Shown here one piece after another: positions 1-15,890 of a stretch of DNA of 15,890 nt. Position numbers and translations under genes: made by a program. The notes beneath the pieces were generated by a model, which worked only from the letters and a program-made list of their open reading frames with translations, ran no database searches and was not told the DNA's origin. Position 1 is the first letter of the stretch. Each line of letters opens with the position of its first letter. Origin of the DNA: a virus (lineage: Duplodnaviria > Heunggongvirae > Uroviricota > Caudoviricetes); IMG/VR virus record IMGVR_UViG_2681813004_000014, positions 1-15,890 of that record, one strand, 5' to 3'.

Positions 1-78
1 CCGCTGAGCAGGCGGTCGGTTCTGGGCAGGGTCGGGTTCGTCCTGAAAACTCCCCCCCACCCCGTCCGGCTGCCTCAT
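1..78 (-). CDS. N-terminal fragment of a gene continuing past the left window edge (possibly a terminase subunit)
   Basis: ATG at 76-78 on minus strand overlaps the upstream stop (ATGA coupling); reading frame MRQPDGVGGEF... stays open to position 1. Identity is a guess from operon context. Confidence 0.3.
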   Translation of the reverse strand, partial: MRQPDGVGGSFQDEPDPAQNRPPAQR

Positions 79-260
79 CAGCGATTGCGAAAACATTCCA
101 TGACCTCGCGGTCACGGTCGGTTAATCGCTTCGCTGTGGTGCGTTTTGTGCGCCCTGTCCTGTTGGCTTTGTGCTCTGTCTCCTGTGTCTTCCATGTGTC
201 ACGCTGCCTTATCAGTCCACGTATCAGCCTGGTTTGCTCCTGTTCAGTCATCATCGCCAT
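78..260 (-). CDS. Hypothetical small basic protein (~60 aa)
   Basis: C-terminal part of track ORF 78..494; the N-terminal part overlaps the HNH gene in another frame, so an internal Met (MAMMTEQEQTRLIRGL...) is the likely start. Rich in R/K/T, no recognised motif. Confidence 0.3.
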   Translation of the reverse strand: MAMMTEQEQTRLIRGLIRQRDTWKTQETEHKANRTGRTKRTTAKRLTDRDREVMECFRNR

Positions 261-684
261 ACATCCAGTCGTTACGGTGTGCCGCCCGTTCTTCCTGCTC
301 GCGATACATGCCCGCTTTACGGTTTGCTTTCGTGGCTGGATCTTCCCGTGTGGTCTTACGGTTGTGGCACGTCTGGCACAATGCCTGGTGATTCCACTCA
401 GGCCAGAAGAGAACATCATTACCGCCATCGATGGGGATAATGTGATCCACCACCACGGCGGGCGTGTATATTCCTTTTTCCAGGCAATGCGCACATAACG
501 GGTTTTTACTCAGGTACATAGCGCGGTATTTCTCCCACTGCCTCGTATACCCTCGCTCCCTGCTGCTGCCTCTCCGGCTGTCCTGCTGCTGGCGTGCGCT
601 GCGTCTGTGCTCCTCACACTTCCCGGACTTCACGCGCCTGTTGCAGCCTGGTTGTGTGCATCGTCTCAATGGTTGCCACGGCAT
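244..684 (-). CDS. HNH endonuclease
   Basis: Cys-rich N-terminus (CTQPGCNRRVKSGKCEEH) and HNH core motif DHIIPIDGGNDVLFWPEWNHQALCQTCHNRKT; start overlaps the upstream connector stop. Confidence 0.8.
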   Translation of the reverse strand: MPWQPLRRCTQPGCNRRVKSGKCEEHRRSARQQQDSRRGSSRERGYTRQWEKYRAMYLSKNPLCAHCLEKGIYTPAVVVDHIIPIDGGNDVLFWPEWNHQALCQTCHNRKTTREDPATKANRKAGMYREQEERAAHRNDWMYGDDD

Positions 685-980
685 CAGTACACCCCCACAT
701 CACGATAAACCGACCAGAGCGCGGAAATCGTCAGGGGAATTTCTTTTGTATCGGTATCGCCAAGCGTTGTCCGGTACTCGTACAGTTGCGAGATGTACAT
801 CAGGCAACCAATTTTTATTGCAGGGGTAAATTCCAGGCCGTCATCAAAACGCCTGCCAATATGCTTCTGGCATACCTCCAGCGCCGCGCTTATGTATGCC
901 TGAATCAGTGTGTCTTCTGTGTTACCATCTATGCGGCAGTGAAGTTTGGCCTCTTCCAGGGTTATTTTTTCTGCTGTCAT
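684..980 (-). CDS. Head-tail connector protein (gp6-like)
   Basis: 98 aa, N-terminus MTAEKITLEEAKLHCRIDGNTEDTLIQAYISAA typical of gp6-like connectors; sits in the head operon. Confidence 0.7.
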   Translation of the reverse strand: MTAEKITLEEAKLHCRIDGNTEDTLIQAYISAALEVCQKHIGRRFDDGLEFTPAIKIGCLMYISQLYEYRTTLGDTDTKEIPLTISALWSVYRDVGVY

Positions 981-1315
981 TTTTCTGTACCCACCTTTGC
1001 CAGAATTTCCAGCCGGGTTCTTTTCGCATCAGGTAAGGGGATCCCGATGATATTAAGCGTGCTCCCGGCAAAAGCGCCGGTAAGCACTTTCAGGCGACTG
1101 GCGGCGGATATGTCGCCACGATAGCGAACCCATACCCGAATCGTTGCAGGTGCGGTTTCTGCGCCTGCGGTCAGTAATTCCCGTCCGCTGATCCCCTTGA
1201 CCTCTGCCCAGATGGTTTCCCCTTCCGTCCATATCTGCTGGATCGCACCTGACGGCAGGCGCTGTGTGGTAAATGTCATAATCGTCACCCGGTCCCGCAT
1301 CTTTCCGGCTATCAT
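977..1315 (-). CDS. Head closure / head-tail adaptor protein (gp7 / SPP1 gp16-like)
   Basis: 112 aa with MRDRVTI...IWAEVKGISGRE...IRVWVRYRGDI pattern; 4-bp overlap with portal stop. Confidence 0.65.
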   Translation of the reverse strand: MIAGKMRDRVTIMTFTTQRLPSGAIQQIWTEGETIWAEVKGISGRELLTAGAETAPATIRVWVRYRGDISAASRLKVLTGAFAGSTLNIIGIPLPDAKRTRLEILAKVGTEK

Positions 1316-2529
1316 TCGTCACCGCCCTTACTGTTCTTGCTGATTGTCACTTCCTGCTTCCATGCCTGGCTGAACTCGTCACCACCTTCACGCGGCGGCA
1401 TTCCCTCACGCTCACGGGCTTCGTTCGGATTGATGATCCCGTTCTTAATCCCTTTCTCATACGTGGCGTAACGTTCGGTAGGGGTGGCGCGTAATAAATC
1501 GGCTGAATCAAACTCAACCAGATAACGGGTTCCAGGCACGGGAGAAGCCACCAGCAAAGCGGCCTTGATTTGCTGTTCGAAGTTCGCCAACCAAGGACGC
1601 ATTGTCATGGTCAGAAACGCGCGGCTTGCCTCACTGAAATTGCTGTAGGTGCTGTTGCTGTATTCCTGCAAAAAAATCGGCGAGACGTTGAACATTCGGG
1701 CGATGTCTTCAATGGTAAAGCGACGGGAGGCCAGCCATTCAGCATCCTGATTACTCATGCCCAGCTGCTGATAGCTCATACCCCCTTCAAGGATGGGCGT
1801 TTTTCCGGCGTTTCTGGCCCCTTTGTAGCGTTCCAGTGCGGCTAATGCCTGTTTGCCCTTCACGCCGTCCAGCCATTCGCCTGACGTGATAACCCCTGCC
1901 GCCATCATGCCATCACGCATCACGCTCGCGCCGTGGCGTTGTTGGGCCAGCCCAAGCCCCAGCGATTCGCGGCAGATGGTTACAGGTGAGCGCCCCATAA
2001 AGCCGTCATCCGTGGAGTAACGAAGGTGGAGAACCTCCCACGGTAAATAGTTGCGGGTGTTTCCGGTGTAGGCGTCAGTGATGCAGTAGCGCCAGTTATG
2101 CTCACCTGTCTGCTCCACGTTCACCGACTGCGGCGGGTAAGGATGTAAAGCCACCGGAAAACCATCACGCCCCCACTGAATCACCGCATAAGCATTACCG
2201 TTTAACAGGCAGTGGCGGATCATCATTCGCTTAAACTGGTAGGGGGTTTGCCATGCGTTCGGGCGCTCGTTGAGGATGTGATCGACCGGATGAGAATCAA
2301 GCCACTCGCGGGCCTCCTTCCCCTTCTCATTGCGTACCAGGTACAGGTAACACGGCATGGTAGCCACCGCCTCAGAGATGACCGTCACGGCGTTCATGAC
2401 GGCGGGCAGTGATTCCGCTGTCCCCGATGATACGTACTCACCCGCCCCCGTGTTCGATGTGCCCGCCAGCGCCATAAATTCATCAAGCGTCATGCTGCGC
2501 TGCTCTTTTTTTCTTCTGAAAAGCCACAT
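1312..2529 (-). CDS. Portal protein, HK97 family (copy 1)
   Basis: 405 aa; near-identical to ORF 3552..4760 except the C-terminal tail; immediately upstream of prohead protease. Confidence 0.85.
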   Translation of the reverse strand: MWLFRRKKEQRSMTLDEFMALAGTSNTGAGEYVSSGTAESLPAVMNAVTVISEAVATMPCYLYLVRNEKGKEAREWLDSHPVDHILNERPNAWQTPYQFKRMMIRHCLLNGNAYAVIQWGRDGFPVALHPYPPQSVNVEQTGEHNWRYCITDAYTGNTRNYLPWEVLHLRYSTDDGFMGRSPVTICRESLGLGLAQQRHGASVMRDGMMAAGVITSGEWLDGVKGKQALAALERYKGARNAGKTPILEGGMSYQQLGMSNQDAEWLASRRFTIEDIARMFNVSPIFLQEYSNSTYSNFSEASRAFLTMTMRPWLANFEQQIKAALLVASPVPGTRYLVEFDSADLLRATPTERYATYEKGIKNGIINPNEAREREGMPPREGGDEFSQAWKQEVTISKNSKGGDE

Positions 2530-2530
2530 A

Positions 2531-3103
2531 TCACACCCCCGCTAAATCCACCCACCAGCGGCGATTATCCGCACGCGGCATTTTTTCGGGGTGCTGCTCA
2601 TACAGGGAACGGCGGGCCAGCTCCACGCCGGAATCGGGGTAAGCCGGTACCGATGTAACGGTAATTTCGTACAGTTCCGCCACCAGCACGGTACGAACGC
2701 ATGGATCTGTTGTGGTATCCCATACATCCTTACGGGAGCGAAAGCCAAAGCTCATGCCGGATATATCACCGCGTTTAACCAGTTCGATAACGTCGCGCCC
2801 TGTACTGGTATCCGGTGGGGTCAGTTCAAAGCGTAACCCTGTTTCGTCCTCTTCCAGTTTCAGCGTGCCGGAACGGGTGCGCCCCAGTAACATGCTGTGG
2901 TCATGCTCATACAGGCCGCGAACGTCATTACCCGCCGCAAGCCATTCAGTAAACGCCCCCCGCTGGAATTTTTCGTAAAACTCACCCCATAACAGTTCTG
3001 AAAGCTTATCCCAGCGAACAACGTAGCCCGTCAGCGTACCGGCTCCGCTCGTGGTGATTTCCGATGACCGGATTTCCATACTCTTCATAATTTTTTCACC
3101 CAT
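2531..3103 (-). CDS. Prohead protease, HK97 family (copy 1)
   Basis: 190 aa with DHSMLLGRTRSGTLKL and GMSFGF motifs; identical in protein sequence to ORF 4762..5334. Confidence 0.85.
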   Translation of the reverse strand: MGEKIMKSMEIRSSEITTSGAGTLTGYVVRWDKLSELLWGEFYEKFQRGAFTEWLAAGNDVRGLYEHDHSMLLGRTRSGTLKLEEDETGLRFELTPPDTSTGRDVIELVKRGDISGMSFGFRSRKDVWDTTTDPCVRTVLVAELYEITVTSVPAYPDSGVELARRSLYEQHPEKMPRADNRRWWVDLAGV

Positions 3104-3113
3104 AAAACACTAA

Positions 3114-3131
3114 AGGGGCTTTTAAGCCCCT
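3114..3131 (-). terminator. Hairpin 3' of the capsid-derived ORF (copy 1 of duplicated unit)
   Basis: Inverted repeat aggggct/agcccct with 4-nt loop followed on minus strand by a T-rich run; possible partial terminator or mRNA stabiliser. Confidence 0.3.
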
Positions 3132-3142
3132 TCTGTATGCTG

Positions 3143-3559
3143 TTAATCGTCGTCCTGTGGCAGTTCCAGAATCTTGATCGCGTTCGAATCCACCACGCCA
3201 CCGCCTAAATATTTCTGCGTGAAAATTTTGATGAAGCCCGGCTCTGTGATGTTGTCCGGTCTGGTGCGAACACCTGTTTCGTGATCAACAATGTAGTAAC
3301 CGCGTTTGAAGTCACCCAGGGCAATAACGTTATCAGGCATAAACTCCAGATATTCGACCGGAAGGCCCAGCAACGTATCAGGATCACCCGCCTGTAAACG
3401 GTCGCGCCAGATGTAATCACCGTTCGCGTTCTTCACCTTCTGAAGTTTTGCCGATGACGCGTTTCTTGTATACATTTTCAGAAGTTCGCCTTCTCCGGAA
3501 AAGTCATCAAGGCGAAGATGTGCCCTGACTTCATCAGGTGTAATTTTTTCTTCACTCAT
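3143..3559 (-). pseudogene. Chimeric ORF: gp6-like connector N-terminus (~35 aa) fused in frame to the last ~103 aa of the major capsid protein
   Basis: C-terminal part is identical to the end of capsid ORF 5374..6576; N-terminus MSEEKITPDEVRAHLRLDD resembles the start of connector ORF 684..980; Shine-Dalgarno-like aaggtg sits 6 nt upstream of ATG at 3559. Track ORF extends to 3640 but that region overlaps portal copy 2. Confidence 0.55.
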
Positions 3560-4760
3560 CTTTTTCACCTTTAATTTCCACCGTCTGCTTCCATGCCTGG
3601 CTGAATTCGTCGCCACCTTCACGCGGCGGCATCCCCTCACGTTCGCGGGCTTCGTTCGGATTCATGATCCCGTTCTTAATCCCTTTCTCATACGTGGCGT
3701 AACGTTCGGTAGGGGTGGCGCGTAATAAATCGGCTGAATCAAACTCAACCAGATAACGGGTACCAGGTACGGGAGAAGCCACCAGCAAAGCAGCCTTGAT
3801 TTGCTGTTCGAAGTTCGCCAGCCACGGGCGCATTGTCATGGTCAGAAACGCGCGGCTTGCCTCACTGAAATTGCTGTAGGTGCTGTTGCTGTATTCCTGC
3901 AAAAAAATCGGCGAGACGTTGAACATTCGGGCGATGTCTTCAATGGTAAAGCGACGGGAGGCCAGCCATTCAGCATCCTGATTACTCATGCCCAGCTGCT
4001 GATAGCTCATACCCCCTTCAAGGATGGGCGTTTTTCCGGCGTTTCTGGCCCCTTTGTAGCGTTCCAGTGCGGCTAATGCCTGTTTGCCCTTCACGCCGTC
4101 CAGCCATTCGCCTGACGTGATAACCCCTGCCGCCATCATGCCATCACGCATCACGCTCGCGCCGTGGCGTTGTTGGGCCAGCCCAAGCCCCAGCGATTCG
4201 CGGCAGATGGTTACAGGTGAGCGCCCCATAAAGCCGTCATCCGTGGAGTAACGAAGGTGGAGAACCTCCCACGGTAAATAGTTGCGGGTGTTTCCGGTGT
4301 AGGCGTCAGTGATGCAGTAGCGCCAGTTATGCTCACCTGTCTGCTCCACGTTCACCGACTGCGGCGGGTAAGGATGTAAAGCCACCGGAAAACCATCACG
4401 CCCCCACTGAATCACCGCATAAGCATTACCGTTTAACAGGCAGTGGCGGATCATCATTCGCTTAAACTGGTAGGGGGTTTGCCATGCGTTCGGGCGCTCG
4501 TTGAGGATGTGATCGACCGGATGAGAATCAAGCCACTCGCGGGCCTCCTTCCCCTTCTCATTGCGTACCAGGTACAGGTAACACGGCATGGTAGCCACCG
4601 CCTCAGAGATGACCGTCACGGCGTTCATGACGGCGGGCAGTGATTCCGCTGTCCCCGATGATACGTACTCACCCGCCCCCGTGTTCGATGTGCCCGCCAG
4701 CGCCATAAATTCATCAAGCGTCATGCTGCGCTGCTCTTTTTTTCTTCTGAAAAGCCACAT
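3552..4760 (-). CDS. Portal protein, HK97 family (copy 2)
   Basis: 402 aa; same as copy 1 except a different C-terminal tail (…KQTVEIKGEKDE). Confidence 0.85.
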   Translation of the reverse strand: MWLFRRKKEQRSMTLDEFMALAGTSNTGAGEYVSSGTAESLPAVMNAVTVISEAVATMPCYLYLVRNEKGKEAREWLDSHPVDHILNERPNAWQTPYQFKRMMIRHCLLNGNAYAVIQWGRDGFPVALHPYPPQSVNVEQTGEHNWRYCITDAYTGNTRNYLPWEVLHLRYSTDDGFMGRSPVTICRESLGLGLAQQRHGASVMRDGMMAAGVITSGEWLDGVKGKQALAALERYKGARNAGKTPILEGGMSYQQLGMSNQDAEWLASRRFTIEDIARMFNVSPIFLQEYSNSTYSNFSEASRAFLTMTMRPWLANFEQQIKAALLVASPVPGTRYLVEFDSADLLRATPTERYATYEKGIKNGIMNPNEAREREGMPPREGGDEFSQAWKQTVEIKGEKDE

Positions 4761-4761
4761 A

Positions 4762-5334
4762 TCACACCCCCGCTAAATCCACCCACCAGCGGCGATTATC
4801 CGCACGCGGCATTTTTTCGGGGTGCTGCTCATACAGGGAACGGCGGGCCAGCTCCACGCCGGAATCGGGGTAAGCCGGTACCGATGTAACGGTAATTTCG
4901 TACAGTTCCGCCACCAGCACGGTACGAACGCATGGATCTGTTGTGGTATCCCATACATCCTTACGGGAGCGAAAGCCAAAGCTCATGCCGGATATATCAC
5001 CGCGTTTAACCAGTTCGATAACGTCGCGCCCTGTACTGGTATCCGGTGGGGTCAGTTCAAAGCGTAACCCTGTTTCGTCCTCTTCCAGTTTCAGCGTGCC
5101 GGAACGGGTGCGCCCCAGTAACATGCTGTGGTCATGCTCATACAGGCCGCGAACGTCATTACCCGCCGCAAGCCATTCAGTAAACGCCCCCCGCTGGAAT
5201 TTTTCGTAAAACTCACCCCATAACAGTTCTGAAAGCTTATCCCAGCGAACAACGTAGCCCGTCAGCGTACCGGCTCCGCTCGTGGTGATTTCCGATGACC
5301 GGATTTCCATACTCTTCATAATTTTTTCACCCAT
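4762..5334 (-). CDS. Prohead protease, HK97 family (copy 2)
   Basis: Protein identical to copy 1. Confidence 0.85.
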   Translation of the reverse strand: MGEKIMKSMEIRSSEITTSGAGTLTGYVVRWDKLSELLWGEFYEKFQRGAFTEWLAAGNDVRGLYEHDHSMLLGRTRSGTLKLEEDETGLRFELTPPDTSTGRDVIELVKRGDISGMSFGFRSRKDVWDTTTDPCVRTVLVAELYEITVTSVPAYPDSGVELARRSLYEQHPEKMPRADNRRWWVDLAGV

Positions 5335-5344
5335 AAAACACTAA

Positions 5345-5362
5345 AGGGGCTTTTAAGCCCCT
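5345..5362 (-). terminator. Hairpin 3' of the major capsid gene (copy 2 of duplicated unit)
   Basis: Same inverted repeat as 3114..3131, offset by 2231 bp. Confidence 0.3.
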
Positions 5363-5373
5363 TCTGTATGCTG

Positions 5374-6576
5374 TTAATCGTCGTCCTGTGGCAGTTCCAG
5401 AATCTTGATCGCGTTCGAATCCACCACGCCACCGCCTAAATATTTCTGCGTGAAAATTTTGATGAAGCCCGGCTCTGTGATGTTGTCCGGTCTGGTGCGA
5501 ACACCTGTTTCGTGATCAACAATGTAGTAACCGCGTTTGAAGTCACCCAGGGCAATAACGTTATCAGGCATAAACTCCAGATATTCGACCGGAAGGCCCA
5601 GCAACGTATCAGGATCACCCGCCTGTAAACGGTCGCGCCAGATGTAATCACCGTTCGCGTTCTTCACCTTCTGAAGTTTTGCCGCCGTTGTGGAGTTAAC
5701 CACCCATACCGCGTTCTTGCGGTATTTTTTACGCAATGCAAATTTCAGGTCGATCAGCGGGTCCGCAGATGTCCACGCCAGACCGTGAGCGGGCTTGATA
5801 ACCTGCAACGTTCCGAAGTCGCGTTCTTTGTCGCTCTTCTCTGCACGGGGGACGGATAAAAAGCCTTTTGCTTTTTTGTCACCGTCGCCCACAACCAGAT
5901 CGCTTTCTTCGGTTTCCGTGAAGGTGTCGCCAATCTCGCCCGTCAGCCATGAAAGGATGTCCACATCGGAAAAATCCACGATTTCCTGTGTGGTGCGCGG
6001 GTACGCATAGACCGGATACAGCTTAATGCTCACCTCGTTAATCTTCGGGGTGCTGGTCTGTTCGCGTGCCTTACCCTCTTCACCGTGGTTAACGGTCGCA
6101 CCGCCAGCGGAAACAAGCTGCTTAAACTCGTTGCTGCTGATTTTCTTCACGGTACAGATGCGGCGCATGGTGGATTCATCCGCCAGTATTCGCATGATTT
6201 CGGTGTTCAGTTCGGGGATAACGGTATAACCACCATCAGCGGCAACGCCTGTACTTAATGCGCGGGTTTCACCTGTCAGAATGTAGTTGCGTAGTTCTGC
6301 GGGGTCAGTGGTCTGACTGCTTTTACCTGGCTTGCTGCGCTCTTCGTCTGCAATGGCTTCAAGGCGGGAAATGTCTTTATCGAGGGATTCAGCTTTAGCG
6401 CGTAATTCGTCAAATTTTGCGCCCTCAGCATCGTTAAGACTGCGGTTTTCTTTTTCCGCGTTCTCCAGCATGTCGCGCATCTGATTTTTAATGGCGGTTT
6501 TCTGCTGGCGTAATTCGATTATTCTCGGCATAAAAAAAAGTCCTGGGGTTAAGTAAGGAACTCCAGGACGCGACAA
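5374..6576 (-). CDS. Major capsid protein, HK97 family, with N-terminal coiled-coil delta domain
   Basis: 400 aa; N-terminal heptad-rich segment (IIELRQQKTAIKNQMRDMLENAEKE…) then a capsid-like body. Track start at 6576 is a TTG; an ATG at 6531 (MPRIIELRQQ) is an alternative start. Confidence 0.85.
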   Translation of the reverse strand: MSRPGVPYLTPGLFFMPRIIELRQQKTAIKNQMRDMLENAEKENRSLNDAEGAKFDELRAKAESLDKDISRLEAIADEERSKPGKSSQTTDPAELRNYILTGETRALSTGVAADGGYTVIPELNTEIMRILADESTMRRICTVKKISSNEFKQLVSAGGATVNHGEEGKAREQTSTPKINEVSIKLYPVYAYPRTTQEIVDFSDVDILSWLTGEIGDTFTETEESDLVVGDGDKKAKGFLSVPRAEKSDKERDFGTLQVIKPAHGLAWTSADPLIDLKFALRKKYRKNAVWVVNSTTAAKLQKVKNANGDYIWRDRLQAGDPDTLLGLPVEYLEFMPDNVIALGDFKRGYYIVDHETGVRTRPDNITEPGFIKIFTQKYLGGGVVDSNAIKILELPQDDD

Positions 6577-7227: not shown

Positions 7228-7509
7228 TCAATTATCCCTTTTTTTCGGGTAGTTCCTGAACATCTCACCGCCAGGTTTCTGTAAGCCAATCCCGGTATGT
7301 GTGCGGTTTATGGCCTCTTTCAGTATTCCGAAATTATCCGGTATGACTGGTGGGCGTGCTGCCTTACGGATACATTCCGCGCGACGCTTTGCCACTTGTT
7401 CGCGCTCCTTGTCAGTGCTCACCAGCCACATAACATCAGCCCAACGTGCCGCCGCTCTCCGGTACAGCCCTTTAGCCTCCAGTTCTTCCGCTTTGCTGTC
7501 TTTAATCAT
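7228..7509 (-). CDS. PerC-like transcriptional regulator (putative)
   Basis: ~93 aa starting MIKDSKAEELEAKGLYRRAAARWADVM, a pattern I associate with PerC-family prophage regulators; gaggt lies 5-6 nt upstream of ATG 7509. Assignment is from memory of the family. Confidence 0.5.
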   Translation of the reverse strand: MIKDSKAEELEAKGLYRRAAARWADVMWLVSTDKEREQVAKRRAECIRKAARPPVIPDNFGILKEAINRTHTGIGLQKPGGEMFRNYPKKRDN

Positions 7510-7543
7510 GCTGTACCTCACTGCTTAAAACGGTATCCCGTCC

Positions 7544-7815
7544 CCGTACGGATCATCGTGCTGGCCTGTCTGTTGTTTTGCCCTGTTCAGTGCGTCAGTA
7601 GCCTGGCCCTGCTGGCCTTTTTTGCCGCCCGGTCGCACTGTCCGCGCACTGATTACGCTGTCTGCGATGACCTGCCAGCCCGTACGGATCATCGTGCTGG
7701 CCTGTCTGTTGTTTTGCCCTGTTCAGTGCGTCAGTGGCCTGGCCCTGTTGACCTTTTTTGCCGCCCGGTCGCGCCGTTCGCGCACTGATTACGCTGTCTG
7801 CGATAACCTGCCAGC
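7544..7815. repeat. Tandem 136 bp duplication (2 copies, a few mismatches) at the 3' end of ssb
   Basis: 7544..7679 and 7680..7815 align at a 136 bp offset with a handful of substitutions. Confidence 0.85.
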
Positions 7816-8086
7816 CCTGCCGCGTTTCGCCGTTCTGGCCTGTCCACTGGCTTACCTGCATGTTACCCGCCACGCTCACCAGTTCGCCTTTCTGGTGTTT
7901 TGCCAGTGCCTCGGCCTGTCTGCCAAACGCCAGGACGGATAACCACATCGTCGCCGTTCCGTCATCTGCCTGGCTGCACGGAAGGGGGACCGCCATACTC
8001 GCCATCGCCATTTGTGTCCCCTTGCTGGTCTGTTTTACCTGCGGGTCAGCCACCAGCCGCCCGTAAGCTGCTATCTGTGCTGTCAT
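7595..8086 (-). CDS. ssb: Single-stranded DNA-binding protein with frameshifted C-terminus
   Basis: N-terminal OB-fold-like region (…TMWLSVLAFGRQAEALAKHQKGELVSVAGNMQVSQW…). The 136 bp duplication is not a multiple of 3, so the ORF ends in an out-of-frame tail; the canonical ending …HDDPYGDGIPF* is present in another frame, stopping at 7526. Confidence 0.7.
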   Translation of the reverse strand: MTAQIAAYGRLVADPQVKQTSKGTQMAMASMAVPLPCSQADDGTATMWLSVLAFGRQAEALAKHQKGELVSVAGNMQVSQWTGQNGETRQGWQVIADSVISARTARPGGKKGQQGQATDALNRAKQQTGQHDDPYGLAGHRRQRNQCADSATGRQKRPAGPGY

Positions 8087-8334
8087 GCTGTCTGCTCTCC
8101 GGTTTTAACGTTGATGGTTGTTACCTGTTCCGCTCCGGCAATCTCCCGTTGTGTCAGCGTGGCAAAGTTTGCCGCCGCTGTGGTCATGAATGCGCTAATC
8201 AGTTCGGGATGCGCTTTCGCGTATCCTTCTCCGGCGTGGCGGTCTATCGTTCTGATTGCCACCTTTAAGGCGTGCTCTGTCATGTCTAACGCTTTATATT
8301 TTGGCGCTGTCTTATCTCTGGTTTTTCTGTTCAT
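8083..8334 (-). CDS. Hypothetical protein (start uncertain: 8364, 8334 or 8283)
   Basis: Track ORF 8083..8364; the 5' part lies inside the iteron array, so a later start is more plausible. Stop overlaps ssb start. Confidence 0.4.
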   Translation of the reverse strand: MNRKTRDKTAPKYKALDMTEHALKVAIRTIDRHAGEGYAKAHPELISAFMTTAAANFATLTQREIAGAEQVTTINVKTGEQTA

Positions 8335-8550
8335 TCCCCACCACTCCCCACTTTTGCTCCCCACTTTTTAAATTCCCCACTTGCTCCCCACCTCGTTTTT
8401 TGAGTGAATGTAATGCTTTGTTTTTCATTGCGTTTTTTACTCCCCACTTTTTTGGATGTATACAGGTGGGAAAGTGGGGAATTATGTTTCAATTTTGTTA
8501 AATTCCCCACTCTCCCCACTTTTACTACCCACTTTTTACAGTGGGTAAAC
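8334..8550. repeat. Iteron array, putative replication origin
   Basis: At least 9 direct copies of (t)tccccac(tttt), inverted copies near 8463-8482, an AT-rich spacer around 8394-8440, and a palindrome tacccac…gtgggta at 8526-8546; directly 3' of the replication gene. Confidence 0.6.
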
Positions 8551-9942
8551 ATCATCCCCATCGACACAAATCACGCCGTCTTTTTCCAGCTTGGACAGCC
8601 AGCGCCGGAAGTGCTTCATCTCATACCCCAGCTTTTTCATATCGTCGCGGAGAAGGGCGATAGTGCATGGCTCTTTGTGTGCCGTCCGCGTTCTGATGCA
8701 CTGCCATAGCGCGGCGTGATTCTCCGATTTGTTGCCTGCTTCCTCGATGCGCTCCAGTTCAGCAGGGGCGCGGGGAACGTCAATCACCACCATAGACACA
8801 ATCTCTTCCCCATCGGTATCGGTAAACACCTCCACGCTTTTAAGGTCGTATGCACTCTCTTTTGGCTCCTCTGCGTCCTTCATCTTCGTACACGCCGCCA
8901 CCAGTGCTGTAACGTCTGAATTTTCCCGGCTGATTCGGTACTCTGCATCAAGCGCGGCACGGAATGCGCTGGAACCACGCGCCCCCTTTGTTTCATCCTT
9001 GCCGGAATGGTGAACCACCAGCACCGTGGCCCCTGTGGCCTGCTTTATCGCGTCACACCCCTGGATAAATGCGCCCATATCACGGGAATCATTTTCATCA
9101 TTCCCACCAAAGCAACGGGCCAGTGTGTCGATCACAATCAGCCGCACATTTTCGCCCGTTCTGCTCTTAACAAGTCCGGCAGTCCTGATAACCTGCTCCA
9201 CATAGTCAGGCGATGCAGGGAAAACAGGCGCGTTAATGATGCACAAATCTGTAACCACCTTGTCGTGGGTTATCTCCCACGCCTTAACGCGGCGTTTTAC
9301 GCCCATACTGCCTTCGCCAGCGATATAGATAACCGCGCCCTTACTCACCCTGCGGCCTCCCCATGCCATACCTGTGGCAACATGGCACGACCAGGAAATG
9401 GCGAGGAACGATTTATAAGAACCGCTGGCCCCGTAGGTGCTGCATAATGACTCAGCCGGAATAAGCCCCTTAATGACGTAGCTTTGCTGCGCGTCGAATC
9501 CCTCAGAACCCCATGAGATGGGAAGCGTGATTTTTCTCTTTCCGCCATTCATGACCAGGCTTTCCCCTCTCTCCCATGTTTCCCGTAGTCGTGGTAGCTG
9601 GTCGCTCCAGTCCTCAAGCAGTTCGAAATTTTCAGAAAGTAGCCGCGCCTCCTGGACTCCGGCGATCGCCAGTTTTGTGGCAATGGTCAGCATCTGCATA
9701 TCGTCCAGGTTTCCGGCGCGTATGACCTTTACCCTGTATCGTCCTTCATCAACAATCTGTAAGTTGTCCAGTTCGCTTAACTGATAACGGCCCAGGTAAA
9801 CCGGAGGGATGGGATCGCCTGCTTTTTTGGCCTGTGCAATCATGTAATGTTCTGCAAAGGAGTGAGCATTATCACCCGCAAAAATAACCGCCTCAGTGTG
9901 TTTATCTTTCGGTAACAGTTTTACGTTCGGTGCAAGTTTCAT
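8536..9942 (-). CDS. Replication protein with RecA/RepA-like P-loop ATPase domain (putative primase-helicase)
   Basis: 468 aa; Walker A-like YGASGSYKSF, Walker B-like RLIVIDTLARCFGGNDEND, then VLVVHHSGKD…RGSSA, as in RepA/AAA_25-type replicative ATPases. Confidence 0.75.
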   Translation of the reverse strand: MKLAPNVKLLPKDKHTEAVIFAGDNAHSFAEHYMIAQAKKAGDPIPPVYLGRYQLSELDNLQIVDEGRYRVKVIRAGNLDDMQMLTIATKLAIAGVQEARLLSENFELLEDWSDQLPRLRETWERGESLVMNGGKRKITLPISWGSEGFDAQQSYVIKGLIPAESLCSTYGASGSYKSFLAISWSCHVATGMAWGGRRVSKGAVIYIAGEGSMGVKRRVKAWEITHDKVVTDLCIINAPVFPASPDYVEQVIRTAGLVKSRTGENVRLIVIDTLARCFGGNDENDSRDMGAFIQGCDAIKQATGATVLVVHHSGKDETKGARGSSAFRAALDAEYRISRENSDVTALVAACTKMKDAEEPKESAYDLKSVEVFTDTDGEEIVSMVVIDVPRAPAELERIEEAGNKSENHAALWQCIRTRTAHKEPCTIALLRDDMKKLGYEMKHFRRWLSKLEKDGVICVDGDDVYPL

Positions 9943-10226
9943 TTCTTACCCCCTGCGACCAGCATTTCACGGATTTTGCGGATATAACTTGCAGCACGTT
10001 TCTGATTAACGGCTTTACGATGGCCCACCAGCGTGAAATCACGCCGGAACTGATAAACAGGCATAACGCAGTCATATTCGTAGCCATCACGGCGGTAAGT
10101 GATGCGCCGTTCCTCCACGCCCTTAATCATTACCGTGCCGCCGTAGTTATCACGGAAAATATCGCCGGGACGGATTTCAGGACGAGCGGGGCCGCTGGCA
10201 TTAACGCCAGAATTTTTATTTTTCAT
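9939..10226 (-). CDS. Hypothetical protein (95 aa)
   Basis: ORF in the early operon with 4-bp overlap to the replication gene; no recognised motif. Confidence 0.5.
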   Translation of the reverse strand: MKNKNSGVNASGPARPEIRPGDIFRDNYGGTVMIKGVEERRITYRRDGYEYDCVMPVYQFRRDFTLVGHRKAVNQKRAASYIRKIREMLVAGGKK

Positions 10227-10231
10227 GTTTT

Positions 10232-10465
10232 TTATTCTCCGGTGTGCTGTTCTTTATATCTGTCGTGCAATAGGTCTATTTCCTGCAACTCTGTTATTAC
10301 AGGTTCAAGGAGAGTTATCAGAGATTTAATAATCCGCGCATTCTTTACATCACGCTCATTATCGCCAAATGTATCTGGATACATTTGCAATATTTCGTAC
10401 ATGCCTTCAGCGTAAGCAAGGGCACTAAATGCGCGGTCTATTGTTTCGTGGTAAATATCACGCAT
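10232..10465 (-). CDS. Hypothetical protein (77 aa)
   Basis: Tightly packed ORF in the same operon; no recognised motif. Confidence 0.45.
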   Translation of the reverse strand: MRDIYHETIDRAFSALAYAEGMYEILQMYPDTFGDNERDVKNARIIKSLITLLEPVITELQEIDLLHDRYKEQHTGE

Positions 10466-10466
10466 A

Positions 10467-11021
10467 TTAATCCCCGTCCGTCGTTTTTCTTAAAACAGTT
10501 TCCGTTACGAAATCAGCATAGTTAGCGGCGATATCAAGAATATTTAGCCCTGTATCCCTGTGCTCATCAGTGCAAAGAAAGAAAAAAGCCACCCGCATAA
10601 TTTCAGATATTGACGAAAGCGCATCAGCCGCATTATCAGGAACGCCGGAAAATTCCTGTTTCAGGGAATTAAAACGATCATCACGCATAACCCCCCCATT
10701 TTCACAATCAGCAATCAGGATGGCTTTAGCCTCATTCAGCGCCATATCAGCGGTTAGCTGTGCGTAGGCCAGCGAATGCGGGATTATTGCCCCTGTATAT
10801 TCCGGCTCTCTGGTAATGTGTTTTTCTGCGGTTGCTGCCGTGCATGAAATATCAATCAGCGCGTGCATTAGCGTTATGATGGCTTCGGCGGCTGCGTCCG
10901 GACGGATCTCTCTGGTAATGTGTTTTTCTGCGGTTGCTGCCGTGCATGAAATATCAATCAGCGCGTGCATTAGCGTTATGATGGCTTCGGCGGCTGCGTC
11001 CGGACGGATGTTATTGCACAT
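10467..11021 (-). CDS. Hypothetical protein (184 aa) with internal duplicated 34 aa segment
   Basis: Contains IRPDAAAEAIITLMHALIDISCTAATAEKHITRE twice in tandem. Confidence 0.5.
   Translation of the reverse strand: MCNNIRPDAAAEAIITLMHALIDISCTAATAEKHITREIRPDAAAEAIITLMHALIDISCTAATAEKHITREPEYTGAIIPHSLAYAQLTADMALNEAKAILIADCENGGVMRDDRFNSLKQEFSGVPDNAADALSSISEIMRVAFFFLCTDEHRDTGLNILDIAANYADFVTETVLRKTTDGD
10806..11009. repeat. Perfect tandem 102 bp duplication, in frame
   Basis: 10806..10907 is identical to 10908..11009. Confidence 0.85.
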
Positions 11022-11379
11022 GGCGCACCCCCTGAATAACCTGATATCCGCAACTGGTCAGCAATTCGATAAATTCCGGCAGTGTGCCGAAACAGCAATC
11101 ATCACGCAGCCGTTCGCAGGATACCTCGACGCCGTTTTCGTAGTGACTCACCATACATCCGGTAAAATGCAGATCATCATCGTGATGGCTCGTTGACGGT
11201 TTCATCAGTCGCGCACGTTCCGCCAGTTCAAGCAATGCTTCAACGCTTCCGGCAATTGCACCATCCGGCAGGTGATAATTACTTACTACGCGTCCATTCT
11301 CTACATTGACGAGTAGCTGTCCGGTAAATTTCTCACGAAACTGAACGCGGTTAAGATCGGTAAGTGACAGGTTAATCAT
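11011..11379 (-). CDS. Hypothetical protein (~122 aa)
   Basis: Internal ATG at 11379 (MINLSLTDLNRVQ…) is preceded by aggggg at about 7 nt; track ORF extends to 11496 but overlaps the upstream gene. Confidence 0.5.
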   Translation of the reverse strand: MINLSLTDLNRVQFREKFTGQLLVNVENGRVVSNYHLPDGAIAGSVEALLELAERARLMKPSTSHHDDDLHFTGCMVSHYENGVEVSCERLRDDCCFGTLPEFIELLTSCGYQVIQGVRHVQ

Positions 11380-11568
11380 GGTACACCCCCTGACGAATAC
11401 GGGCAGCGAATACAGCGACACAACCGGACGGGCAACGGTTACGCGCTTCGCGTTCTGTCCAGGCGGTGACGTGGATGATTTGGGATTCTCCGGCACTCAG
11501 TGCCAGAAAACGCCACACAAAGGCCGTTTGTGTGTGCGCTAGGCGTGGGGTATGCTGTTTTACAGCCA
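11372..11568 (-). CDS. Hypothetical small protein (~65 aa), first gene of the early operon
   Basis: ATG at 11568 with agaggt 7 nt upstream; MAVKQHTPRLAHTQTAFVWRFLAL…; the long track ORF 11372..12199 is rejected. Any resemblance to Icd-like small proteins is unverified. Confidence 0.4.
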
Positions 11569-11768
11569 TAATCGTTACCTCTTTTAACGGTTTGGTTAGA
11601 CGCCCCGTTACTGCTCCAACAGTACGGGGCTTCGTCGTTTCAATTGCTGAATTGCATATATCAGCCCTTGTGGTATTCAGATTACATTTAGGTGAATACC
11701 ATTTCAAGTCTTTTTTGGTATTCACTTTTGTATTACACTGCATCCCGTTATTAATCGGAGGTGCAAAT
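11569..11768. promoter_or_regulatory. Divergent promoter/operator region between the early operon and the RHH gene
   Basis: Half-site GGTATTCA at 11672-11679, its inverted copy at 11693-11700 (13 bp spacer) and a third copy at 11717-11724; imperfect hairpin at 11602-11630. Confidence 0.5.
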
Positions 11769-12074
11769 ATGTCCACGAGTTCTGTTAACAATAAGTCACA
11801 GCAACTGAATGCCAGATTTCCACATGAAGTAGTGAGTGGCATTGAGGCATCCCTACAGCCAGGGGAAACTAAAGCGAATTTTATAGTTACGGCTGTACGC
11901 GGTGAGATCGCCCGCCGCCAAGCAGAAGGAAGAAGAGAAAATCCCCTGGTTTCTTCGCTCGATGCACTGGCGCAGGTGGAAAAAATCGGTGTCAAAGCTG
12001 CCGAGGAGATCGGGCAACTCGTCGCCGTTGCGCGTGAAGAACTCCAGCGGCGCAAAGCCAAAGAACAGGAATAG
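11769..12074 (+). CDS. Ribbon-helix-helix-like DNA-binding protein (candidate island repressor)
   Basis: ggagg 8 nt upstream of ATG 11769; N-terminal region (…ARFPHEVVSGIEASL…FIVTAVRGEIARRQ) resembles Arc/CopG-type RHH; the only plus-strand island gene, divergent from the early operon. Confidence 0.55.
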   Translation: MSTSSVNNKSQQLNARFPHEVVSGIEASLQPGETKANFIVTAVRGEIARRQAEGRRENPLVSSLDALAQVEKIGVKAAEEIGQLVAVAREELQRRKAKEQE

Positions 12075-12162
12075 CCCACCAGCAAGCCAGCACACTGATC
12101 ACATTGCCCACCAGCCAGCAAACCGCTATGATGGCCGGGCTTATGTTTAGTGTTTTCCCATT

Positions 12163-12190
12163 GGCGACCGCCCCCGGTCGCCTTTGTTTT
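12163..12190 (+). terminator. Rho-independent terminator
   Basis: GC-rich hairpin ggcgaccg-cccc-cggtcgcc followed by tttgtttt, downstream of the RHH gene. Confidence 0.6.
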
Positions 12191-12209
12191 ATGTGCCATA
12201 TACTCCCCT

Positions 12210-12434
12210 TTACGCTGCCTTGCCTGAATTAATGCGATCCCGGCTTTTAACCCATTCCATAACCTCGGACAGCAGCCAACCTACAGAACGACCGCCCAGA
12301 TTAAGGCGTGACGGAAATCGCCCTTTTTTCTCCAGTTCGTAGCGTGTAGTGCGACACACTCCAGTTAACTTACGACATTCATCCTCACGGATTACGCGAT
12401 CTGATAGTGATTGAAATTGTGTATTTTGATTCAT
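12210..12434 (-). CDS. alpA: AlpA-family transcriptional regulator
   Basis: 74 aa; …CRKLTGVCRTTRYELEKKGRFPSRLNLGGRSVGWLLSEVMEWV matches the AlpA HTH pattern of CP4-57-type islands. Confidence 0.85.
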   Translation of the reverse strand: MNQNTQFQSLSDRVIREDECRKLTGVCRTTRYELEKKGRFPSRLNLGGRSVGWLLSEVMEWVKSRDRINSGKAA

Positions 12435-12528
12435 AAAAAACGTCCTCGAACGTTGCCGAACGAGGACGATTCTAGACGGTGGTAAAACGCCGTTTGTGTG
12501 ATATCACATTATCGGTACGTGATATCAC
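12435..12528 (-). promoter_or_regulatory. alpA leader hairpin plus two palindromic operator-like sites
   Basis: Hairpin 12441-12468 (cgtcctcg…cgaggacg) followed on the minus strand by TTTTTT and the alpA ATG; the right arm contains the only GAGGA upstream of alpA. Palindrome GTGATATCAC occurs at 12498-12507 and 12519-12528, centres 21 bp apart. Confidence 0.45.
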
Positions 12529-13244
12529 TTTTTGCGTTTTTGTTGAGATTCACGCCCCAAATACTTTTGCCATGTCTGCCAATGTGTTTTGGGAAATTCT
12601 ATCCCTCTGGATGCAGCTATAGAATCAATTAAATCTGCTATTTTAGGTAATGATTCCGTGTCTAGGTCTACATCACCCATTTCTGGAATAAGTTTAATTA
12701 AAGAGTAAATAACCTCATTCCTTTTTGCTGCTCTTTTGGGGTTATCTTCTGTAAGATTACGAAAACTACCTTCATCTTTTACATTATTTAAATCATCTGC
12801 CATCACACATAAATAATCAACATCTATATCAAATGGCTTGAGATTTTCCCCTTCTGGAGTTATTTCTAATCCACCGCCAAGTCTATCAGGGTAAAAATAT
12901 AATGTTGGTGAGCTTATGATGTTATTATGTTTAAACTCAATATCAGAGAACGCCTTTTTGTTTACATAGAAAAAACCAGCAATAAAATTTGCTATATATA
13001 ATCTATCATCTATTTCCTTCTCTAAATTAATTGTTTTGCCGTCCTGGAATATTAGTCCATTCCGTTTATTATCTTTAAATCCCTCAAGAAAATAAACCTC
13101 ACAGTTCCCAACACTATGCTCAGGAATAAATACAGAAATATCAATGGCACCTGTACTAGCGAAATGATAGAGATCCCTTATTGTACATCCTAACTTTTCT
13201 GCCGCTTCAGGTAACGGATAATAGAGTCTTTTAGGTAATTTCAT
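12525..13244 (-). CDS. Low-GC cargo protein of unknown function, possible N-terminal HTH
   Basis: 239 aa; markedly AT-rich compared with flanking int and alpA; N-terminus LPEAAEKLGCTIRDLYHFASTGAI resembles excisionase/MerR-type HTH; 4-bp overlap with int stop. Confidence 0.7.
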   Translation of the reverse strand: MKLPKRLYYPLPEAAEKLGCTIRDLYHFASTGAIDISVFIPEHSVGNCEVYFLEGFKDNKRNGLIFQDGKTINLEKEIDDRLYIANFIAGFFYVNKKAFSDIEFKHNNIISSPTLYFYPDRLGGGLEITPEGENLKPFDIDVDYLCVMADDLNNVKDEGSFRNLTEDNPKRAAKRNEVIYSLIKLIPEMGDVDLDTESLPKIADLIDSIAASRGIEFPKTHWQTWQKYLGRESQQKRKK

Positions 13245-14461
13245 TTAGCCACCTTCAGCATAACAATATTTTCATGATTTCCAGCCAGCACATCAAGACG
13301 CTCAACCCACAGATTCAACGCGTCCCGCTTTGCCTGTAAATAGCGTGAATGGTTATAGGTTTTTTGCTGACCGGGCATCTGATGCGCTGTGATGTGCTCC
13401 ACGATATGCGGATCGACACCTAAATCGTTCAGCATCGTTGTAAACGTGTGGCGAAAGTCATGCAGCGTCCAGTGTTCCTGGTTAAGCCGCTTATGCGCAT
13501 TTCGCCCATATTGCGCTACCGTGGTATCTTTTTTCAGTTCTCCGAGTAATAACCCTGTATGCCGGTTCTTCTCCACCAGCTTCTGAATGAACGGCAAAAT
13601 GCCATCGGGGATTGGCCTGAATATCGTTACCTTCGTTTTGCTATGCTCTTTTGGCACTGTCCACAACATTTCTTTCAGATCCCATTCTTTGATCTCTGAA
13701 AGTCTGACCTCTGCCGTTCTGCACCCGAACACAATCAGCAAGCGCATTAACGCGCTGTAGTAAGGCGCGAACACATCACCATCGATAGCGCGTAAAATTT
13801 CCTTTAATTCGCTGTTACTGTGCACCCTCTCGCGAATTTCTGCTCTCTTACCCACATCGCTGACGATCAAATCGTCCAGGGCATTACTGAACGCGTAGCG
13901 CCTCCTGCGGCAGAACTTTAGCGCCTGTTTGCAGGTTTGCATGACGTGCCCTGCTGCTACTGGTGCTTTTTTTCGTACACGGTCAAAACATGCGATCCAC
14001 TGCCTTGTATCGCATTTATCAAGAGGAATTGCCCCTATATGGCAAATGATGTGCTTATCCATACGTTGCACCAGCTTTATGTAGTCTTTGCGGTTACCCT
14101 TCGCATATTCATCCAGCCAGTAGTTAATCGCCTCCTTCACCGTAACGGGTTTTAGCGCTTCCTGTACTGTGGCGCACAACTCATAACGGGGGTTTTTACC
14201 CTCAGCCAGCCATGCCCGGCACTGTGCGCGTTTTTCCCTTGCAGCTTTCAGCGACAATTCAGGGTAAGCCCCCAGCTTTAACCGCTCTGCGGCAACCTCA
14301 CGGCCTCCCGTTCGGTACCGGAAATACCAGGTTAATTTGCCGCCCTTTGAGTGTTTAATCTCCAGCCCGCCCCCGTCGGAGTAAAAACGCTCTTTTTCTG
14401 CCTGGACAGCCGCCAATTTTTTTAACGTCGAATCGCTCAGTTTGTTTAGTGCTTTTCCCAC
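13241..14461 (-). CDS. int: Tyrosine integrase, P4-like
   Basis: 406 aa with catalytic-region pattern …LHDFRHTFTTMLNDLGVDPHIVEHITAHQ…YNHSRY; located at the island edge. Confidence 0.9.
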   Translation of the reverse strand: MGKALNKLSDSTLKKLAAVQAEKERFYSDGGGLEIKHSKGGKLTWYFRYRTGGREVAAERLKLGAYPELSLKAAREKRAQCRAWLAEGKNPRYELCATVQEALKPVTVKEAINYWLDEYAKGNRKDYIKLVQRMDKHIICHIGAIPLDKCDTRQWIACFDRVRKKAPVAAGHVMQTCKQALKFCRRRRYAFSNALDDLIVSDVGKRAEIRERVHSNSELKEILRAIDGDVFAPYYSALMRLLIVFGCRTAEVRLSEIKEWDLKEMLWTVPKEHSKTKVTIFRPIPDGILPFIQKLVEKNRHTGLLLGELKKDTTVAQYGRNAHKRLNQEHWTLHDFRHTFTTMLNDLGVDPHIVEHITAHQMPGQQKTYNHSRYLQAKRDALNLWVERLDVLAGNHENIVMLKVAK

Positions 14462-14489: not shown

Positions 14490-14640
14490 CTCAAAAAACT
14501 GACCACACAACTGACCACACATTTCGTTGAAGCTCTACGAACAACGACGAACAATAACAAACAAGAAAACGAAACATTCCATTTAATATCAAATACATAT
14601 CCAAACAACCACGAACAACCCCGAACCACAAAAAACACTA
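14490..14640. promoter_or_regulatory. A/C-rich repeat region upstream of int
   Basis: Direct repeat aactgaccacac x2 (14497-14520), multiple gaacaa units, and the 15-mer AACAACCACGAACAA (14604-14618) that also occurs at 6758-6772. Confidence 0.3.
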
Positions 14641-14790: not shown

Positions 14791-15063
14791 TTATTTGATA
14801 TATGAATCCAGCACCTTCAGAACGACATCCAGATCTTCTTCACGTTTTAGCTCATCCCCCTGGTGAACGATGTGTTCCGTCAGATGACCTTTAATCACTT
14901 CCCGCATCAGACCGTTTACCGCGCCACGGATAGCAGCAATCTGTTGTAAAACTGCAGCGCATTCGTGCGGCTCGTCGAGCATTTTCTTGAGCGCCACGAC
15001 CTGGCCCTGAATCTTACTGGCACGCGCTTTCAGTTTCTGTTTATCACGGATTGTATGAGACAT
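14791..15063 (-). CDS. rcnR: Ni/Co-responsive transcriptional repressor RcnR
   Basis: 90 aa [56 protein letters not shown]… recognised as RcnR; divergent from rcnA. Confidence 0.9.
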
Positions 15064-15183: not shown

Positions 15184-15864
15184 ATGACCGAATTTACAAC
15201 TCTTCTTCAGCAAGGAAACGCCTGGTTCTTCATCCCCAGCGCCATCTTACTTGGTGCGCTTCATGGCCTGGAACCAGGGCACTCAAAAACGATGATGGCG
15301 GCGTTTATCATCGCCATCAAAGGCACCATTAAACAAGCGGTGATGCTCGGACTGGCAGCAACTATTTCGCATACCGCAGTGGTCTGGTTAATTGCCTTTG
15401 GCGGGATGGTGATCAGTAAGCGCTTTACTGCTCAATCAGCAGAACCGTGGCTCCAGCTGATTTCCGCAGTGATCATTATTAGCACCGCGTTCTGGATGTT
15501 CTGGCGTACCTGGCGCGGCGAACGCAACTGGCTGGAGAATATGCACGGGCATGATTATGAGCATCATCATCACGATCACGAAGATCACCACGACCATGGA
15601 CATCATCACCATCACGAACATGGCGAGTATCAGGATGCCCATGCACGAGCCCATGCCAATGATATTAAACGACGCTTTGATGGTAGAGAGGTCACCAACT
15701 GGCAAATTTTGTTATTTGGCTTAACAGGTGGTCTTATCCCCTGTCCGGCAGCAATTACCGTGCTGTTGATTTGCATTCAGTTGAAAGCCCTGACACTGGG
15801 CGCAACACTGGTCGTCAGTTTCAGCATTGGCCTGGCGGGTAATGCTGCCAACTTACTGATTTAG
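15184..15864 (+). pseudogene. rcnA: Nickel/cobalt efflux protein RcnA, interrupted by IS1
   Basis: N-terminus and His-rich loop (HGHDYEHHHHDHEDHHDHGHHHHHEHGEYQDAH) match RcnA; after …SFSIGLA the reading frame runs into IS1 terminal sequence and stops early (226 aa, shorter than intact RcnA). Confidence 0.85.
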
Positions 15865-15890
15865 TGTATGATGGTGTTTTTGAGGTGCTC
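15839..15890 (+). mobile_element. IS1 terminal inverted repeat and adjacent sequence (partial, runs off window)
   Basis: ggtaatgctgccaacttactgatttagtgtatgatggtgtttttgaggtgctc matches the IS1 end as I recall it, with one variant base. Confidence 0.85.

Follow-up and report, generated by a model that had tools for sequence, protein, structure and literature searches.

A probable capsid-forming satellite of the EcCIEDL933 type, with internal tandem duplications, in a draft Escherichia coli genome

We analysed a 15,890-bp stretch of viral DNA (IMG/VR record IMGVR_UViG_2681813004_000014), hereinafter designated the window. The window is the entire contig AOTC01000266.1 of the draft E. coli assembly GCA_001447405.1, and both of its edges are contig ends. 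The element that it carries is in all likelihood (probability about 0.9) a capsid-forming phage-inducible chromosomal island (cf-PICI) of the EcCIEDL933 type, a family that has already been described. With similar confidence, we read the window as the right-hand ~14.5 kb of a cf-PICI integrated between thiM and rcnR, the left part of which lies on another contig of this strain. For comparison we used islands from three complete E. coli genomes, LH50-c (locus L001), JNE170426 (L002), and Br_190_kylling (L003), together with EcCIEDL933, the island of E. coli O157:H7 EDL933.

Head and packaging genes

In the direction of transcription, the head module contains capsid, protease, portal, a duplicated segment, head closure, connector, HNH endonuclease, and a 60-aa open reading frame (ORF), all on the minus strand. 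The first gene encodes a major capsid protein of the HK97 fold (5374–6531; Phage_capsid PF05065, 2e-61), which matches the EcCIEDL933 capsid structure PDB 9GYI end to end over 385 residues with a handful of substitutions (E 1e-250). That structure was reported in 10.1101/2025.02.11.637232, the only paper in which the entry 9GYI is cited. The longest ORF of the capsid gene begins with a TTG at 6576, and the ATG at 6531 gives 385 aa. The real start is probably the ATG, because a 385-aa product fits both the full length of the 9GYI chain and the annotation of the relatives. Next come a prohead serine protease (4762–5334; Peptidase_S78 PF04586, 7e-48) and a 402-aa portal (3552–4760; Phage_portal PF04860, 3e-92), whose last ~250 nt are of the Br_190_kylling lineage. 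Both are present a second time, the protease at 2531–3103, identical to the first copy, and the portal at 1312–2529, with 405 aa and 100% identity to that of LH50-c. The remaining genes encode a head closure protein (head completion or head-tail adaptor of the Hc1, gp7/gp16 type; 977–1315; PF05521, phrog_25, TIGR01563), a gp6-like head-tail connector of the Ad1 type (684–980; PF05135, phrog_40, TIGR01560), the HNH endonuclease of the packaging module (244–684; PF01844, 3e-8), and the 60-aa ORF conserved between hnh and terS (78–260; phrog_3173, 6e-27), which is annotated in all relatives. Judged from gene numbering, this ORF would be the positional counterpart of EcCIEDL933 "gene 1792".

These families agree with the order of head genes that the initial annotation had proposed from capsid to the small ORF, although it had left out the second protease, the second portal, and a chimeric ORF lying between the two copies. 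It had also called the order inverted relative to the canonical HK97 layout. A comparison with the HK97 record itself bears this out: the record reads TerS-TerL-portal-protease-major capsid protein-Ad1-Hc1-tail genes, opposite to the window. The inverted order is the normal and diagnostic layout of the family and not an anomaly, because the founding paper gives the same conserved order for proteobacterial cf-PICIs, namely capsid-protease-portal-head connectors followed by hnh-terS-terL (Alqurainy et al., bioRxiv, 10.1101/2022.09.08.507074). The same paper states that phage and PICI packaging modules "have different genetic organisations", and describes EcCIEDL933 as a 15.4-kb island with int, alpA, rep, capsid, protease, portal, connectors, HNH, TerS, and TerL, and with no tail genes.

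The cfPICI model of SatelliteFinder comprises 11 core components, forbids tails and holins, and detects such elements in 13% of Enterobacteriaceae genomes. The window contains nine of the 11 core components and neither of the forbidden ones; the missing two are terS and terL. Specifically, integrase, alpA, capsid, protease, portal, both connectors, and HNH are present and follow the published gene order. The replication protein is represented by a RepA-family helicase, assigned through Pfam AAA_25 and not through SatelliteFinder's five pri-rep profiles, together with an iteron cluster. No ORF of the window matches a tail, holin, endolysin, or lysis family in Pfam, PHROGs, PADLOC, or NCBIfam, consistent with the earlier statement that no tail genes are in view.

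The capsid-first order is the same in all four annotated relatives that were fetched, except that Br_190_kylling has no annotated head-closure gene. Among 5426 complete E. coli genomes, 403 have capsid, protease, and portal genes as a collinear block, in every case on the chromosome. In the Br_190_kylling locus (positions 9793–11299), the portal gene is directly followed by one annotated connector gene with no separate closure gene annotated, which represents a variant of the joining module.

The relatives indicate what probably lies beyond the left edge. LH50-c is 99.8% identical to the window over positions 5–3453, with 99.5–99.8% DNA identity in the head and packaging module, and continues beyond the edge with TerS, TerL, a 93-aa ORF, and then phoQ. 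The JNE170426 island occupies the same thiM/rcnR site, has a 43-bp direct-repeat att core, and carries int and alpA that are 99% identical to those of the window. Beyond the corresponding point, it contains terS, terL, and the 93-aa ORF, followed by att and chromosomal genes. Likewise, terS and terL lie directly beyond the counterpart of the window edge in Br_190_kylling and EDL933. The two complete att-bounded relatives, JNE170426 (14.2 kb) and LH50-c (15.2 kb), have no tail or lysis genes.

These loci bear on the possibility that the window belongs to a prophage, complete or defective, of which it would be the head end, the tail and lysis genes lying past the left end of the contig. It is true that this strain's element continues on another contig, and the head genes are of the HK97 phage type. 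However, neither JNE170426, with its shared site and att core, nor LH50-c, with 99.8% identity as far as the edge, has anything more than terS, terL, and one small ORF before the chromosomal genes resume. In addition, the gene order is that of a cf-PICI and not that of a phage, the int-alpA-rep segment is a PICI module, and the capsid is at most 40% identical to those of true phages. The nearest "phage" records are satellite-sized entries of 15–16.5 kb. We therefore regard a prophage as very improbable. The initial annotation had proposed that the leftward sequence be searched for terminase genes and the other att end, and had said that a full prophage would reveal itself by tail and lysis genes immediately to the left of the window. 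In the relatives, the former are found (terS and terL in both islands, the left att in JNE170426) and, by homology to these two islands, which alone represent the ~3 kb of this strain's element beyond the edge, the latter are absent from the element. A complete HK97-like prophage, with terS-terL-portal-protease-capsid-connectors, tail, lysis, and immunity genes in ~40 kb, was also considered and rejected, since the order differs and the relatives span 14–15 kb without tails.

There is no clear case of a gene cut by the left edge. The initial annotation had ended its gene list with a gene running off the window, which corresponds to a 26-codon open frame; in LH50-c the same frame closes after 53 codons and is unannotated. 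An N-terminal extension of TerS was considered as well and rejected, because the frame differs from that of terS and is closed in LH50-c. By homology to LH50-c, positions 1–77 are a G-rich intergenic stretch upstream of terS, whose start lies ~47 nt beyond position 1 of the window. In the HK97 record, the cohesive (cos) end is 50 nt upstream of terS. By analogy, positions 1–77 probably adjoin the cos site, and the left contig break may coincide either with cos or with a repeat that a second island also carries.

Comparison with the prototype, phages, and other satellites

The order of EcCIEDL933 is int, regulator, replication genes, SSB, PerC, capsid, protease, portal, closure, connector, HNH, 60-aa ORF, TerS, TerL, and a small ORF. 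The window shares the order from capsid to the 60-aa ORF (and its relatives share TerS and TerL), as well as int, alpA, a DUF4222 gene, SSB, and PerC. It likewise lacks tail and lysis genes, and its element is ~15 kb once the duplications are discounted. The capsid is 97%, the protease 97%, and the portal 95% identical to those of the prototype. In contrast, identity falls to 54% for closure, 68% for connector, 78% for HNH, and 67% for integrase. The island is integrated between thiM and rcnR, whereas that of EDL933 lies between phoQ and roxA. It encodes a RepA-type helicase, whereas EDL933 has a DUF927 primase-type protein. Three internal tandem duplications are present here only. The low identity of the closure and connector proteins suggests that the tail partner probably differs from that of EcCIEDL933.

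HK97 and the element have the same families (HNH, TerS, TerL, portal, S78 protease, HK97-fold capsid, Ad1, and Hc1) and HNH-dependent cos packaging in common, as well as a terminator-like hairpin that immediately follows the capsid gene. Unlike HK97, the window has the order within each block reversed, no tail genes, and low sequence identity to true phages. Classical PICIs of the EcCICFT073 type and P4-like satellites resemble the element in their int-alpA-replication end module, their size of ~10–15 kb, and their dependence on a helper. However, they lack portal, connectors, terL, or a complete capsid set and use helper capsid proteins, and assignment of the window to either class was rejected on gene content.

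The published genetics of the prototype indicates what such a set of genes does. In EcCIEDL933, mutation of each packaging gene ended transfer of the island but not of the phage, while helper tail mutants ended both. Later work showed that the capsids have T=4 symmetry, that tail-less capsids are released, and that the adaptor and connector proteins determine tail compatibility; natural cases are known in which identical packaging modules are combined with different adaptor and connector genes. AlpA is needed as well. Induction by a helper phage, small capsids made by the island itself, and transfer for which the helper has to supply nothing but tails have all been shown for EcCIEDL933. If the present element behaves as the prototype does, a helper phage would induce the island through AlpA, and the island would excise by its own integrase and replicate from its own helicase and iteron origin. 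The head module, comprising capsid, protease, portal, closure, connector, HNH, the small ORF, TerS, and TerL, would then be expressed. Its products would assemble small T=4 capsids of the HK97 fold, which HNH, TerS, and TerL would fill with island DNA cut at cos near terS. Finally, the closure and connector proteins would dock helper-phage tails onto the filled heads.

A hairpin followed by a T-run occupies the 39-nt gap directly after the capsid stop codon (5343–5364, minus strand) and is a candidate attenuator or terminator. Its folding energy is −17.3 kcal/mol (z −3.0), and it is present again at 3112–3133 in the duplicated segment. The hairpin is kept in position in the 75%-identical Br_190_kylling lineage, with a different stem and loop, and the HK97 record has a putative terminator at the same place, right after the capsid gene.

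Several points weigh against the assignment or limit what can be taken from it. First, terS, terL, cos, and the left att are off this contig and are known from relatives only. Second, the mechanism is carried over from the prototype, and the present element is known from its sequence. Third, with closure and connector proteins only 54% and 68% identical to the prototype, the helper and tail type need not be those of EcCIEDL933. Fourth, the element is ~17.5 kb as assembled, versus 14.2–15.4 kb for the relatives, and its SSB gene is frameshifted, so this copy may not be transferable. Fifth, a scan of the region for promoter and terminator consensus sequences gave no enrichment over shuffles, and terminator-like sites as a class are not enriched. 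We infer that a capsid-first order, with the conserved hairpin as a partial terminator, would help to make the capsid protein far more abundant than protease and portal.

Overall, the finding adds little in the way of discovery, since cf-PICIs were described in 2022–2023, a capsid structure has been solved, and existing tools already detect them. The initial annotation had taken the model of a capsid-forming satellite from the literature; that model now has direct evidence, in the published gene order and in the 95–97% identity of capsid, protease, and portal to EcCIEDL933.

Three tandem duplications

The window contains a 2231-bp tandem duplication, in which 1347–3461 corresponds to 3578–5692, and two smaller ones, none of which had been noticed initially. 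The large duplication covers the portal gene, the protease gene, and the 3' third of the capsid gene; relative to LH50-c, the window holds positions 10350–12449 of that locus twice. The two copies are identical over 1598–3453 (1856 nt) and differ by 16 mismatches, all of which fall in the last 250 nt of the portal gene.

The joint between the copies (3454–3584) has a defined structure. Homology to the capsid gene stops at 3453 and is followed by a 14-nt filler (3454–3467), for which no source was found in the window or in the fetched loci. The stretch from 3468 to ~3830 matches, at 99.8% identity, the point where portal and connector meet in a second cf-PICI lineage, represented by Br_190_kylling, and a comparison of 3468–3900 with that junction gives the same figure. 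A called gene of 138 aa crosses the joint (3143–3559, minus strand). It is a chimeric connector::capsid ORF, consisting of 31 codons of the Br_190_kylling-type connector, the filler, and the C-terminal ~100 residues of the capsid protein, all in frame.

The second duplication, of 136 nt (7543–7814), has copies that are 95% identical and is absent from the relatives. It frameshifts the SSB gene (7595–8086, minus strand; PF00436), with loss of the DGIPF tip, and removal of either copy restores an intact 141-aa SSB of the Br_190_kylling type. The third is an exact 102-nt duplication (10806–11009) that gives an in-frame 34-aa repeat within a 184-aa ORF (10467–11021, minus strand; phrog_2512); it is absent from LH50-c and the other relatives, and the 184-aa protein is a singleton. 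All four duplication-specific proteins are confined to this contig among ~15 billion proteins, and a scan of 185,579 representative genomes did not find the joint. A search of the 5426 complete E. coli genomes with the whole window found the full arrangement in none of them, while the repeat at its right end matched all 5426.

Outside the duplications, the element is a mosaic. Compared with LH50-c, JNE170426, Br_190_kylling, and the locus L005, int and alpA are of the JNE170426 type, the replication module is of the LH50-c/Br_190_kylling type, and the head module, at 99–100% identity, is of the LH50-c type. LH50-c, JNE170426, and Br_190_kylling each have only some of the window's modules, and none of the three carries the duplications. 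With the left part of LH50-c or JNE170426 added, the element is estimated at ~17.5 kb as assembled and at ~15.0–15.3 kb without the duplications; a size of ~15 kb, roughly one third of a helper phage genome, is usual for the family.

Two explanations of the duplications have to be weighed, and the ends of the contig bear on them. To the right of the island lie the chromosomal genes rcnR (14791–15063) and rcnA (from 15184). The alignment of rcnA to the relatives ends at 15837, and the last 53 nt (15838–15890) are a multi-copy repeat, present in several copies in each of at least 5000 plasmids, which truncates rcnA and inside which the contig ends. We take this repeat to be the terminal inverted repeat of IS1, although the tools gave it no name. 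A contig that ends in a repeat indicates a short-read assembly.

It is possible, if short of an even chance, that the 2231-, 136-, and 102-bp duplications are artefacts of such an assembly, perhaps arising from a second, related cf-PICI in the genome, and that the true element is an ordinary one of ~15 kb. The window is a whole contig, numbered 266 or higher, of a fragmented draft; its right end falls inside the multi-copy repeat, and its left end stops just short of terS, in a region where related islands resemble one another. The 1856 identical bases exceed the span of short reads, and the duplication-specific proteins and the joint are private to this contig. Removal of the duplications brings the element to the size of its relatives and restores SSB, and the repeats partly carry sequence of the second lineage. 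On the other hand, the specific 14-nt filler and the clean switch to Br_190_kylling-type sequence must come from reads, and a tandem path is the sole placement for such a joint. Moreover, a single read could span either of the two small duplications.

Alternatively, the duplications are real, and two cf-PICI lineages have recently recombined to give an element that is now damaged or in decay, too large for a T=4 head and with a frameshift in SSB; we give this about even odds. The joint lies exactly at the boundary between the portal 3' end and the connector, with 99.8% identity to the second lineage. Cf-PICIs that are otherwise identical are known to have exchanged their adaptor and connector genes, which places the joint at a known hotspot, and the element is mosaic elsewhere as well. 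The absence of the conserved SSB tip and the estimate of ~17.5 kb, against 15.4 kb for the prototype, are consistent with damage. However, it is improbable that one 15-kb element would acquire three private tandem duplications independently. None of the three recurs in another assembly, and the limit on capsid capacity is inferred rather than a measured value. In the most far-reaching reading, which we consider unlikely, the 2231-bp duplication is real and records inter-lineage recombination at the tail-specificity boundary, where such satellites exchange the genes that decide which phage tails they can use. In a bolder version still, the connector::capsid fragment or the tip-less SSB would itself be active, for example by interfering with capsid assembly or by promoting further template-switch duplications. 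For both versions, the support comes from the position and lineage of the joint.

We therefore flag the contig as either misassembled or a damaged recombinant, which matters for its use as a reference and for any count of "two portals". If the joint is real, it is a concrete example of recombination between satellites at the tail-specificity module.

Integration and regulatory end

The right island end is marked by the 43-bp att core (14494–14536), which contains an internal AACTGACCACACA repeat. The identical 43-mer is present on both flanks of the JNE170426 element (positions 8001 and 22174). In the window it matches exactly once, where chance would give 0, and lies 33 nt outside int. A scan of the window found no tRNA, indicating that the island is not targeted to a tRNA gene.

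Next to att lies a tyrosine integrase (13241–14461) with a P4-type arm-binding domain and a catalytic domain (PF13356, 2e-18; PF00589, 4e-17), which is 99% identical to the integrase of JNE170426 at the same site. The P4-type integrase, alpA, and a replication protein with iterons had all been recognized in the initial annotation, and each of them is supported. The alpA regulator is at 12210–12434 (PF05930, 2e-16). The RepA-family replicative helicase (8536–9942; AAA_25, PF13481, 6e-43) is 99–100% identical to the "helicase RepA family protein" of LH50-c and Br_190_kylling, with 99% for the latter; the SSB of Br_190_kylling is 97% identical to that of the window. Just 3' of the helicase gene, an iteron cluster (8325–8538; repeat family D4) is likely the replication origin. 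Seven of the nine CCCCACT sites of the window fall within 8346–8520, with 1.5 expected in the whole window, and the cluster also includes two ~46-nt repeats, 168 nt apart.

The other genes of this end are a PerC-family regulator (7228–7509; PF06069, 6e-35), a DUF4222 gene (9939–10226; PF13973, 1e-25), and a called gene for a small Icd-like protein of 65 aa (11372–11569), which is 94% identical to the LH50-c protein annotated as "host cell division inhibitor Icd-like". The minus strand encodes every island gene except a divergent called gene of the YlcI/YnfO family, which is on the plus strand (11769–12074; NF041551, 1e-16).

The slot between int and alpA is occupied by a 239-aa ORF of low GC content, 0.38–0.42 (12525–13244, minus strand), which has no match in Pfam, PHROGs, PADLOC, or NCBIfam. 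JNE170426 carries a 34%-identical protein at the same place, and PICIs often place accessory genes in this slot.

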